Positions 48,001 through 51,000 of a stretch of DNA of 61,765 bases are shown piece by piece (the first letter of the stretch is position 1; the number at the start of each line of letters is the position of its first letter). Source of the DNA: Stx2 converting phage I; the sequence record AP004402; one strand, given 5' to 3'. The position numbers are program-made.

Positions 48001-51000
48001 TGGGTTGAGGCCGGAATAAATATTGATGTGTGGGGCTATGCAGAATGTGACCTCTGTGAAGCCAGGGGGGCATGGGCACCATCAGTTGCTGCGGCGGCTG
48101 AAAAATGGAACCGGAGAGCAGGAGATGAAGCAAACCTTTCTGCTTCGCAACGAAGCAATCAGAAATAACGCCATAGACGCCATTCTCTCACTACCCATCG
48201 ACGACAAGTCACCCCACGAAGTCCACGTTAAAGAACCCAAGCGCAGCAAAGCGCAGAATGACCGTATGTGGCCGATGCTGAACGATGTTTCGCGTCAGGT
48301 GCTATGGCATGGTCAACGGCTGGCGCCGGAAGACTGGAAAGACCTGTTCACTGCCCTGTGGCTTAAGACCAAAAAACTGGAGCAACGAAGTGTGCCTGGT
48401 ATCGACGGTGGCGTTGTCATGCTTGGCGTGCGTACCAGCAAAATGCGGAAGGCCAGCATGACTGAGCTTATCGAAATCATGTTCTGGTTCGGCTCAGAGC
48501 GCAACGTGCGGTGGAGTGATGACTCCCGGCGAGAGTATGAATGGTTACAACGAAAAGGTAGGGCTGCATGACTATCAAATCAAATACACCAGCACACGAC
48601 AAGGACTGCTGGCAAACGCCGCTTTGGCTTTTTGATGCACTGGATATTGAGTTTGGATTCTGGCTGGATTCAGCTGCGAGCGACAAAAATGCTCTGTGCG
48701 CTCACTGGCTAACTGAGGTCGACGACGCGCTCAATTCTGAGTGGGTAAGCCACGGTGCAATCTGGAATAACCCACCGTACAGCAATATCAGGCCGTGGGT
48801 GGAAAAAGCCGCTGAGCAGTGCATACAACAGCGACAGACGGTAGTTATGCTTGTACCAGAGGATATGTCAGTCGGATGGTTCAGCAAGGCTCTGGAGAGT
48901 GTTGACGAAGTTCGTATTATCACTGATGGACGGATTAATTTTATCGAACCATCGACAGGGCTGGAGAAGAAGGGAAACAGCAAAGGTTCCATGCTGCTGA
49001 TTTGGCGACCGTTCATCAGTCCTCGACGGATGTTTACTACCGTATCCAAAGCGGCATTGATGGCGATCGGGCAGGGCGTCAGAAGGGCGGCATGAGGCGA
49101 CAGCAAAGAAGCATCACCGACATCATCTGCGAAAACTGCAAATACCTTCCAACGAAACGCTCCAGAAATTTAGTTTTGAGCAGAATACCATGATGTCAGT
49201 GCAAGGGGGAGAAAGTCTCCTCATTATCTGATTCGCAATTTACGTGCATATTTAAATATTGCACGTTACAACGTGCATGTGTATGATTGACTTATCAATC
49301 ACAACACGAGATATGCTCATGAAAAATGATGATGTTAGTGGGAAGGCCAAAGGCGGTAAGGCACGCGCGGCAAAAATGACAGCAGAGCAAAGAAAAGAAT
49401 CCTCAAGAAAGGCTGTTGCCGCAAAAAAAGAAAAAGCTTTATTGCCCGTATCTGCGAATGAGGGAAAGTTAAAGATCGGTGATGCGGAATTAGATGTCGC
49501 GGTTCTCGAAAATGGACGGCGTATCATATCACAAGCTTCTGTTTTTAAAGCATTTGGCCGACCACAAAGAGGGGGTAGAGCACCTCAAGAAGAGGGGGTG
49601 ATCAATATGCCCGCTTTTATGGATGCTGCAAACCTTAAAAAATATATAAATCAAGATGTTATGGGTGTGATCAATAAGGTCAAATACAAGACGATTACTG
49701 GCTCCGTCCAGGAAGGTTATGACGCATCCATAATACCTCTTGTCTGCGATGTTTATTTAAAGGCAAGAGAGGCAGGCGCTATCACCAGGCCAAACCAGTT
49801 AGAGACAGCCAAGAAAGCTGAAATTCTGGTGCGCTCATTAGCTAAAGTCGGAATAATAGCGCTTGTTGATGAAGCGACGGGGTACCAGCGAGATAGAGAA
49901 AAAGATGCGCTCGCCAAAATACTCGAGGCCTTTGTCGCAAAGGAAATTCAACCTTATATTACAACATTTCCTGCTGATTATTATGAAGAGCTTTTCAGGT
50001 TAAGGGGCTTAGAATACCCGCCGGAAAATCCCCGCTTCCGGCCTCAGTATTTTGGCGTTTTGACAAATGATATCGTCTACAAGAGATTGGCACCAAACAT
50101 CCTTGAGGAGCTTAAAAAGCAGAACGTAAAGGCCTCAAAAGGTACAAAGTTGTTTCAGGGGCTGACGCCAAATATTGGATATCAAAAATTAAGAGAGCAT
50201 CTGTCATCAACCGTTACGATTATGAAGCTATCTAACGACTATTCAGATTTTATTGCAAAAATGAATCGCCTGCATCCAAGGTTTGAGGATGTGAAAACAG
50301 ACGAACTGGATGATTCAGACAAGTAACAGTAACCCACCTTCAGGTGGTTTTTTTGTACAAATCCTTCAGAGTAAGTTTACCTCCTTCACTGCATTACTAC
50401 TGACCATTGACAACTTAACAAACCCAGCTTCGGCTGGGTTTTTTATTGCTGAATTTTCAATGTGAGAGGACATGACAATGAATGAGCTGATAAATAGCAA
50501 TGCCATCAAAATGACAAGCATTGAAATCGCTGAGTTGGTGGGAAGCCAACACGGTAATGTCAGAATATCAATAGAACGTCTGGCAAAGCGTGGGGTGATT
50601 CAACTTCCTTCAATGCAAAAAGTTGAAAATAAACAAACAATTAGCCCTAACAAATTCACAAGCGTGTATATATTCGAAGGCGAACAAGGTAAGCGAGGCA
50701 GCATTATTGTCGTCGCTCAGTTGTCGCCGGAATTCACCGCTCGCCTTGTTGACCGCTGGCGAGAACTCGAAGGGGCAACCGCGAAAATACCACAAACCTT
50801 TTCTGAGGCATTGCGCCTTGCGGCCGACCTTGAAGACCAGAAGGCTGAACTGGAGAAACAGCTTGCTCTCGCAGCACCTAAAGTTGAGTTTGCCGATCGA
50901 GTTGGCGAGGCCAGCGGAATTTTGATTGGAAACTTTGCAAAGGTTGTTGGTATTGGTCCAAACAAACTGTTTGCGTGGATGCGCGATCACAAAATCCTTA

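Follow-up and report, generated by a model that had tools for sequence, protein, structure and literature searches.

The lambdoid phages carry morons, among them bor and lom of lambda; the moron concept, and the morons of HK97 and HK022, reportedly come from the Hendrix group. Here we describe a gene that resembles them, L0095 (ST933Wp35; annotated 'P63C domain-containing protein'), in the 61,765-nucleotide sequence of Stx2 converting phage I (record AP004402; the whole stretch is called the window, and positions are those of the window). At positions 49100-50500, the sequence is that of Escherichia phage 933W (AF125520 / NC_000924, 17355-18755; 100% identity), the reference Stx2 phage of E. 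coli O157:H7, which counts L0095 among its uncharacterised accessory genes. Like the lambdoid morons, L0095 is an extra open reading frame (ORF) between backbone genes, with an intrinsic terminator and a predicted promoter of its own, a lower G+C content and probable expression in the lysogen. It differs from them in its conserved operator array and apparent own repressor function, and in having replaced approximately 1 kb; in addition, the identical unit is also present in non-lambdoid prophages, and relatives are cargo of transposons.

Several other described systems bear comparison. C-protein-controlled restriction-modification and type II toxin-antitoxin systems are mobile units whose own product binds inverted repeats over the promoter. 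By analogy of logic, expression of L0095 would likewise be set independently of the host genome, whereas L0095 is a single gene with no conserved partner and no sequence relationship to either system. Mx8 p63, the source of the P63C name, shares the P63C domain (36% identity over residues 201-291). For regulators of the Bro-N/KilA-N/ANT type, the likeness lies in weak fold matches enriched in Bro, Bro-N, KilA and antirepressor proteins, and in a shared ant slot; however, no such Pfam domain was detected in L0095, and an N-terminal basic hairpin and operators are undescribed for those regulators. Like IS1 passenger genes, L0095 homologues stand divergently beside a DDE transposase gene at 19 of 80 loci, while in the 933W cassette the only likeness is a faint one, of the left edge, T(T/C)AGTTTTGAG, to the inner portion of the transposon repeat. 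Finally, the lysogeny modules of temperate phages contain exclusion genes, e.g., lambda rexAB, P22 sieB and the lactococcal and streptococcal sie/ltp genes. Homologues of L0095 share their position (in ST104, L004 and Javan515) but nothing else: there is no sequence or fold similarity and no PADLOC match, and the 933W copy lies in the nin region.

We propose that L0095 is probably a moron equipped with a weak sigma-70-type promoter, a terminator (T1) and a self-repressing switch, all its own. The switch would consist of three ACGTGCA half-sites on the -35 element and in the promoter spacer. The cassette protein would bind these via an N-terminal basic helical hairpin (residues approximately 8-40), with Ser28 reading base 5, and occupancy of the half-sites would shut off its own promoter, i.e., negative autoregulation. 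Such a circuit would keep expression at a steady level in any recipient genome, repressed prophage included, while during lytic growth N-modified transcription from pR would simply read through the cassette, T1 and a second terminator (T2) behind it. This kind of element, a moron that is a self-repressed mobile gene, is already known. The family-wide operator, the unmodelled N-terminal motif with its one-residue/one-base rule and the IS1-like link appear not to have been described before, as far as our searches show.

Results

A half-site array overlaps the predicted promoter of L0095

The elements upstream of the gene, and the gene itself, are as follows.

49242..49277, no strand assigned: operator array ACGTGCA-N11-TGCACGT-N4-ACGTGCA, with three half-sites
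49242-49248: half-site 1, ACGTGCA
49260-49266: half-site 2, TGCACGT
49271-49277: half-site 3, ACGTGCA
49259..49287, plus strand: predicted sigma-70-type promoter (-35 TTGCAC at 49259-64, 17-bp spacer, -10 TATGAT at 49282-87)
49319..50326, plus strand: L0095 / ST933Wp35 ORF, 335 aa (Pfam, AF2 model, homologues)

Half-sites 1 and 2 form a perfect inverted repeat with arms of 7 bp and an AT-rich spacer of 11 bp. A preliminary description of the locus had called them a 25-bp near-perfect palindrome; the inverted arms are indeed there, but the spacer is asymmetric, so that the description was overstated. The spacer is off-axis and contains an offset 12-bp palindrome, ATATTTAAATAT. The third half-site of that description is present, and together with the middle arm it makes up a second inverted repeat, TGCACGTT-AC-AACGTGCA. 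Counting both strands, ACGTGCA occurs 4 times in the window versus 9.5 times expected from shuffled sequences, and 3 of the 4 copies lie within 36 bp, for which rough arithmetic gives a chance of approximately 1e-6.

Read from the sequence, the -35 hexamer TTGCAC overlaps half-site 2, and half-site 3 is inside the promoter spacer. The operators thus overlap the predicted promoter of L0095 itself, with transcription predicted to start at approximately 49294, and relatives follow the same logic. The RefSeq start of the gene, ATG 49277 (349 aa), is inside half-site 3 and upstream of the predicted -10. We favour the 335-aa ORF from ATG 49319, because the predicted transcription start is downstream of 49277 and because of the N-termini of homologues. 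For ST104 orf23, the RefSeq start is likewise inside the operator array and upstream of the predicted -10, and homologue N-termini point to a downstream ATG (position 2361 in locus L170, with 2324-2360 upstream of it).

The operators are conserved across the family

The comparison took in approximately 200 relatives. Among them are 80 species-representative genome loci with 42-70% protein identity (81 loci in the count of positional enrichment), which cover Proteobacteria, Actinobacteria, Planctomycetes, Chlamydiae, Dehalococcoidia, Acidobacteria, Verrucomicrobia, Bacteroidetes and others, approximately ten phyla or more. These were pooled with a second set, of viral contigs, to give 134 non-redundant loci. 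Among closer relatives, L004 (87% identical homologue), L006 (82%) and L008 (70%) have the 933W layout with diverged spacers and in unrelated flanks, in the form ACGTGCA-N10/11-TGCACGT-N4-ACGT(G/A)CA-N11-TGC(A/T)CG(T/C); 933W has evidently lost the fourth half-site of this arrangement. The L004 gene is located directly past a cI-like repressor gene and before N (the rex position), that of L006 (Morganella) is in a P22-type immI region after ant, and both units have a terminator on either side.

Almost all of the genome loci have 3-5 half-site copies, in both orientations, within 150 nt upstream of the gene. The copies agree within a locus and differ between loci. The commonest theme is TGCAAGCA(T) / (A)TGCTTGCA; TGCACGC, TGCACGT (the 933W type), TGCAAGT and TTACAAGT are rarer. 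At -150..0, TGCA[AC]G[CT] is found 137 times in 81 loci, versus approximately 2 copies per 50-nt bin elsewhere, with an enrichment of approximately 40-fold at -100..-50. Promoter geometry is shared too: a -10-like hexamer is present 16-18 bp past a half-site TTGCA in 49 of the 134 loci, compared to 5-25 at other spacings. In several loci, extra half-sites lie over the -10 or the start codon. Given such positions, and those over the -35 and spacer, occupancy should repress transcription. The preliminary description had suggested independent regulation, and had named lack of conservation of the palindrome as a result that would speak against it. The ACGTGCA array is in fact conserved, over a predicted sigma-70-type promoter, which supports the suggestion.

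Residue 28 of the protein tracks base 5 of the half-site

The loci have no neighbour gene in common: the family found most often next to the ORF is present in 19 of 80. The L0095-family ORF alone always accompanies the half-sites, making its own product the likely regulator. The best correlate of half-site class within the protein is residue 28, which lies in an N-terminal motif:

49340..49438, plus strand: coding region of the N-terminal motif GKAKGGKARAAKMTAEQRKESSRKAVAAKKEKA, which includes Ser28

In 933W, residue 28 is the second of the paired serines in ...TAEQRKESSRKAVAAKK.... In a first set of 57 loci, its mutual information with half-site class is 0.80 bit, i.e., the full class entropy, versus 0.47 bit for the next column. 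In the pooled non-redundant set, half-site base 5 is C in 18/18 loci that encode Ser or Ala at position 28 and A in 48/48 that encode Ile or Val, so that residue and base are concordant in all 66 informative loci. The rule was derived on the genome loci, and the viral loci of the pooled set then obeyed it as well. On a neighbour-joining tree of residues 45-330, residue 28 and base 5 switched concordantly approximately 10 times. Arg, Gln or Asn at this position go with other half-sites: Arg28 accompanies TTTAGCAT or GCAAGATA, and Gln28 accompanies TGCAAATAT. In chemical terms, it is plausible that the methyl groups of Ile or Val would contact the thymine of an A:T pair, and that the small Ser or Ala would be accommodated at C:G. 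We also considered residue 37 as a second reading position, and rejected it: Lys or Arg goes with T at base 7 in only 14 of 17 loci, and the residue would be on the helix face opposite to residue 28.

A natural control is provided by the Streptococcus-type homologues, which are encoded between repressor and integrase genes. These proteins start approximately 19 residues before the conserved DVAVL strand, i.e., the N-terminal motif is absent, and 12 of the 13 loci (10 distinct N-termini) have no half-sites upstream, with a single site in the remaining one. Taken together, the sequence data make it most likely that the N-terminal hairpin reads the half-sites and that the gene regulates itself. 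The window encodes one protein with the motif and has one half-site cluster; within 933W, the L0095 protein thus appears to control only itself.

The half-sites could instead be operators of a host regulator, or of one encoded elsewhere in the phage; the preliminary description had envisaged such a dimeric regulator. We consider this unlikely. The sites go with the gene in hosts as diverse as Enterobacterales, Actinobacteria, Planctomycetes, Chlamydiae and Dehalococcoidia, with no shared neighbour gene, and closely related hosts have different variants (TGCACGT in E. coli, ACTTGCA in Enterobacter and GCAAGCA in Citrobacter). There is no second half-site cluster in 933W, and the sites covary with residue 28 of the ORF and are absent where the motif is absent.

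The L0095 protein combines a basic hairpin with a P63C domain

A profile search bore out the assignment of the ORF as P63C-like: Pfam P63C (PF10546) matches residues 201-291 over the full profile (1-93) at E 1.1e-23, with 84.1 bits versus a gathering cut-off of 26.1. The protein can be divided into a basic helical hairpin (residues 8-40), which would be the operator-reading head, a beta/alpha domain (44-135) and the P63C domain (201-291). In the AF2 model, the hairpin helices span residues 9-19 and 22-40 and are basic and helix-turn-helix-like (pLDDT 71.8). Neither Pfam nor NCBIfam has a model for the N-terminal motif, and at E 10 no Pfam family matched the N-terminal 49 residues or the middle domain. 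Fold searches with the middle domain gave weak hints of winged-helix or Bro-N/KilA-N-like DNA binders; among the PHROG profiles, 'anti-repressor Ant' matched weakly. The whole protein (residues 3-334) matches positions 2-337 of the 338 in PHROG 2384 at E 1.8e-146, a separate family of 330-aa proteins of unknown function. PADLOC, NCBIfam, PDB (single sequence and profile) and PHROGs gave no functional assignment; in PADLOC-DB 2.0, the only match to a defence-protein model was a spurious one of 14.7 bits. Literature searches turned up no paper on L0095 or on what the P63C domain does.

The family comprises 4,978 clusters at 50% identity (E up to 1e-3), or 1,200 at E up to 1e-30. Conservation is strong, and some residues of ...ALVDEATGYQ..R... 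and of the P63C helices do not vary at all. In three relatives (L214-L216, match 1501-2313), an XRE-type helix-turn-helix takes the place of the N-terminal basic hairpin, and a representative library contains longer family proteins (449-551 aa) with other N-terminal extensions.

The gene lies in a cassette with discrete edges

The unit that surrounds L0095, and the junction behind it, can be placed by comparison with VT2-Sakai.

49172..50373 (right edge 50355 or 50373 by context), plus strand: mobile cassette of leader, operators and promoter, L0095 ORF and T1
50378..50403, plus strand: 3' remnant of a Sakai-type ant, last approximately 8 codons, stop TGA 50401-03 (VT2-Sakai alignment)

The alignment breaks inside ninE after ...CGCTCCAGAAAT, putting the left junction at approximately 49171/49172. 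Homology resumes in the last ant codons, at approximately 50375-50380, and continues through T2 into roi. The ant remnant is outside the cassette and evidently marks the right recombination junction. Where 933W has the cassette, VT2-Sakai has ninE, orf34 and ant, indicating that a Sakai-like nin region received the cassette at the expense of orf34, the 3' part of ninE and the greater part of ant. This is the presence/absence that the preliminary description had proposed to look for among related nin regions. The whole unit is present in only 16 of 363 matching phage records, and positions 49171-50360 (1,190 bp) are found at full length in 49 of 5,426 complete E. coli genomes.

The cassette is mobile. 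The 1.19-kb unit occurs, at least 98.8% identical, in three unrelated E. coli prophage backbones, i.e., 933W, L168 and L169. In L168, a P22-like prophage, the DNA-transfer (ejection) genes lie on one side of the unit and mnt/arc/ant on the other, and the flanking genes are on the opposite strand; in L169, a myovirus-like prophage, it is located among tail-fibre and baseplate genes. The left edges, T(T/C)AGTTTTG..., agree to within 2 nt in the three contexts, and the right edges are just past T1, at 50355 in L169 and 50373 in L168. G+C content is 0.39-0.46 inside the cassette versus 0.50-0.55 in the flanks. On these sequence comparisons, L0095 is a horizontally acquired, self-contained gene cassette, and the earlier view of it as a moron stands. 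It has the marks of one, i.e., presence and absence in collinear relatives, discrete edges, a terminator of its own (T1) and a deviating base composition, save that approximately 1 kb was replaced, so that this was not a mere insertion.

Outside phages, the family has another vehicle. The homologue's divergent partner at the 19 transposase-associated loci is a protein of approximately 300 aa that resembles IS1-family DDE transposases (Pfam DDE_Tnp_IS1 at E 3e-8; NCBIfam IS1 at E 1e-15, below the cut-off). The operators are in the divergent intergenic region between the transposase and P63C genes. At 15 loci, a convergent gene for a protein of approximately 80 aa follows, for example:

L015 3870-4142, L082 4008-4235 and L069 3987-4376, minus strand: motif protein of approximately 80 aa

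The C-terminus of this protein has the same basic motif, GGKARAxKLTxEQRSEIAKKAAAKRW, as the N-terminus of L0095, marking the motif as an apparent portable module in at least two protein families. At 6 or more loci, the genes are enclosed by terminal inverted repeats, GGTAGTGnnTCAGTTTGAA (starting GGTAGTG), as elements of 2.2-2.9 kb:

L036 1981-4313: IS1-like element
L039 1978-4338: IS1-like element
L060 145-2857: IS1-like element
L069 1543-4432: IS1-like element
L082 1578-4504: IS1-like element
L083 2017-4232: IS1-like element

Outside phages, the family is thus evidently cargo of an IS1-like transposon, and its presence in so many phyla may be due to this. A DDE transposase gene and recognisable terminal inverted repeats are both absent from the 933W cassette. 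We considered its left edge as a decayed IS1-like end, and rejected this: the match of T(T/C)AGTTTTGAG to TCAGTTTGAA is too short, and a matching right end is absent.

Mobility suggests a second alternative, in which the repeats would serve to move the cassette, as a homing target or as ends for recombination or transposition, with the P63C protein as the mobility enzyme. The near-identical left edges in three contexts and the residence of 19 of 80 genome loci in IS1-like transposons speak for it. Yet the repeats flank the gene on a single side, the half-sites have no relation to the transposon ends GGTAGTGnnTCAGTTTGAA, the transposon loci encode a separate DDE transposase, and searches of sequence families and folds revealed no nuclease or recombinase in L0095. 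The right edge, moreover, varies by context, as expected for illegitimate recombination. We regard such a role as quite improbable.

Predicted promoter, expression and leader of the cassette

As regards expression, array data for E. coli EDL933 list a probable L0095 entry with log2 values of 12.8 (wild type) and 13.8 (rpoS mutant); for the prophage gene bor, the same table gives 13.0 and 14.7 (PMC2907692). High expression of L0095 in uninduced EDL933 is thus probable.

This bears on a third alternative, i.e., that there is no independent regulation, L0095 being a delayed-early nin gene served by read-through from pR and the half-site cluster a relic. The cassette is co-oriented with the pR operon and its predicted promoter is weak by consensus, as this would have it, but the operators are conserved over 42-87% protein identity amid diverged spacers, with a family-wide signal in -35/-10 spacing. 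In addition, the identical cassette in L168 sits between opposite-strand genes and must there supply its own promoter, and expression in uninduced cells is probably high, so that we find the relic explanation very improbable.

Two further elements precede the ORF in the cassette:

49206..49222, plus strand: weak leader hairpin GGGGGAG-AAA-GTCTCCTC, -9.3 kcal/mol, z only -1.0
49300..49311, plus strand: conserved element CACAACAC of the predicted 5' untranslated region (5'-UTR), then GAGA as a weak Shine-Dalgarno, 7 nt ahead of the ATG

Related cassettes (L004, L008, L061 and ST104) have a canonical terminator, GGTCGCAGA(G/A)ATGCGGCC plus a T-run, that abuts the first half-site, and the 933W leader hairpin is at the position of this upstream terminator. 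The 5'-UTR element is kept as TCACAAC(A/G)CGAG in L004, L006, L008, L061, L101, L102 and L108, and is TCACAACAAAGAG in ST104. C/A-rich elements of the CACAACA type are targets of the small RNA (sRNA) GcvB, and prophages of enterohaemorrhagic E. coli encode anti-GcvB sRNAs. Post-transcriptional control via this element is possible; an AsxR/AgvB-like RNA is encoded in the same window.

Least credible is an RNA switch in the pR leader, in which alternative hairpins 1:2 and 2:3 would attenuate or expose the ORF: arm 2 can indeed pair with arm 1 or arm 3, and the 2:3 hairpin is the minimum-free-energy structure (-9.3 kcal/mol), but shuffled sequences fold just as well (z -0.78) and no Rfam family matches, the arms stay constant, and the change in L006 (ACGTaCA) is not compensated, while their arrangement, in both orientation and spacing, is free to vary, transcription is predicted to start downstream of the arms, and the covariation with residue 28 would be left unexplained.

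The two downstream terminators have different origins

Two hairpins follow the gene:

50334..50354, plus strand: T1, the cassette's own intrinsic terminator, CCACC-TTCA-GGTGG plus T7 (5-bp GC stem, 4-nt loop, U7)
50420..50444, plus strand: T2, strong backbone terminator upstream of roi (9-bp stem, U6, -15.1 kcal/mol, z -3.7)

Both have the GC-rich stem-loop and U-run of rho-independent terminators; a 41-nt segment holding T1 folds at -9.3 kcal/mol. T1 is kept with the ORF in L168 and L169, and diverged L0095 homologues each have a terminator of their own past the stop codon. The T2 flank, by comparison, is present upstream of roi in 176 phage records at 94-100% identity, and T2 comes after ant in 160 records of the VT2-Sakai type that have no cassette. 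As T2 and its surroundings follow ant in most records, T2 is the orphaned terminator of the displaced ant and not part of the cassette. The preliminary description had seen two tandem terminators insulating the gene. Both exist, but they are no double insulator, given that T1 travels with the ORF and T2 belongs to the backbone. An orphan terminator of this sort calls for caution in reading mosaic junctions in Stx phages.

Two candidates in this segment were rejected. An sRNA between T1 and T2 that ends at T2 is unsupported: there is no promoter-like site upstream and no Rfam match, and the spacer is the ant remnant. A 51-aa ORF at 50310-50465 ('hypothetical protein', e.g., gp38 of vB_EcoS_ST2-8624) takes in both terminators as well as the ant stump, and almost certainly is not a gene.

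Weighing the proposed self-repressing switch

Several observations weigh against the switch that we propose for L0095. The structure model is of moderate quality (pLDDT 72, pTM 0.48), and fold searches matched no known DNA-binding fold with confidence. The -35 agrees with the consensus at 3 of 6 positions, and the promoter is below the threshold of a consensus promoter scan. The correspondence between residue 37 and base 7 is imperfect (14/17). The covariation of residue 28 with base 5 may in part reflect exchange of N-terminus and operator as one recombination module, which would mean a functional link rather than direct contact. Sequence comparison establishes the edges and mobility of the cassette, the conserved operators and the covariation, whereas we infer that the protein binds and represses, where transcription starts and that the lysogen expresses the gene. 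As to the remaining approximately 290 residues (beta/alpha and P63C domains), exclusion or defence, or an Ant/Bro-like regulatory interaction in the lysogen, is our guess, which is based on the recurrent positions of the family (after cI, in immI, in the ant slot and as IS1-like transposon cargo). Homologues directly follow the prophage repressor gene cI in ST104 and L004 (rex slot), and one is located between repressor and integrase genes in Streptococcus phage Javan515 (sie/ltp slot); other slots are next to ant in immI and, in 933W, the ant slot itself.

A broader reading is possible, and we advance it tentatively. The motif of approximately 35 residues, (K)GGxARAxx(L/M)TxEQRxE[I/S]xxKAxxA(R/K)[W/K], may be an undescribed portable module for sequence-specific DNA reading, with Ile/Val28 reading A:T and Ser/Ala28 reading C:G at half-site position 5. 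The P63C family would then be self-regulating wherever it has landed, and its cargo domain a widespread effector acting on lysogen or host, in defence, in exclusion or in an Ant-like role. If the residue-to-base rule is true, it would define a small new DNA-recognition module, and make operators, and hence correct start codons, predictable for thousands of genes. The family at issue is very large (approximately 5,000 clusters at 50% identity), and in many phyla it passes between phages and transposons. For 933W, an autonomous, probably lysogen-expressed and self-limiting unit would provide a concrete starting point in the form of operators, a promoter and a predicted specificity-switching residue.

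Genes and RNAs around the cassette

The cassette is set among the following features.

48143-48571: NinB
48568-49095: Dam-type N6-adenine methyltransferase
49092-49193, plus strand: truncated ninE, 26 native codons, then 7 foreign codons and a stop (ORF list)
50472-51200: roi (ANT and pRha domains)
52865-53113: three tRNAs
54522-54727, plus strand: STnc100 (Rfam, 208 bits), downstream of stx2B
54729-54781, minus strand: anti-sRNA AsxR (Rfam, 88 bits), antisense to and abutting STnc100, likewise downstream of stx2B

Upstream of the cassette, a Lar-like restriction-alleviation gene (47706-48168) and the Dam-type methyltransferase gene (48568-49095) are further accessory functions of the nin region. 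Downstream, roi is followed by ninG, ninH, Q, the three tRNAs and stx2A (53207). Rfam covariance models gave no match in 49172-50444 at E up to 1, and the matches nearest to the cassette are the tRNAs, STnc100 and AsxR, 2.4-4.3 kb downstream. AsxR (54729-54781) also scores as AgvB, below the threshold of the AgvB family.

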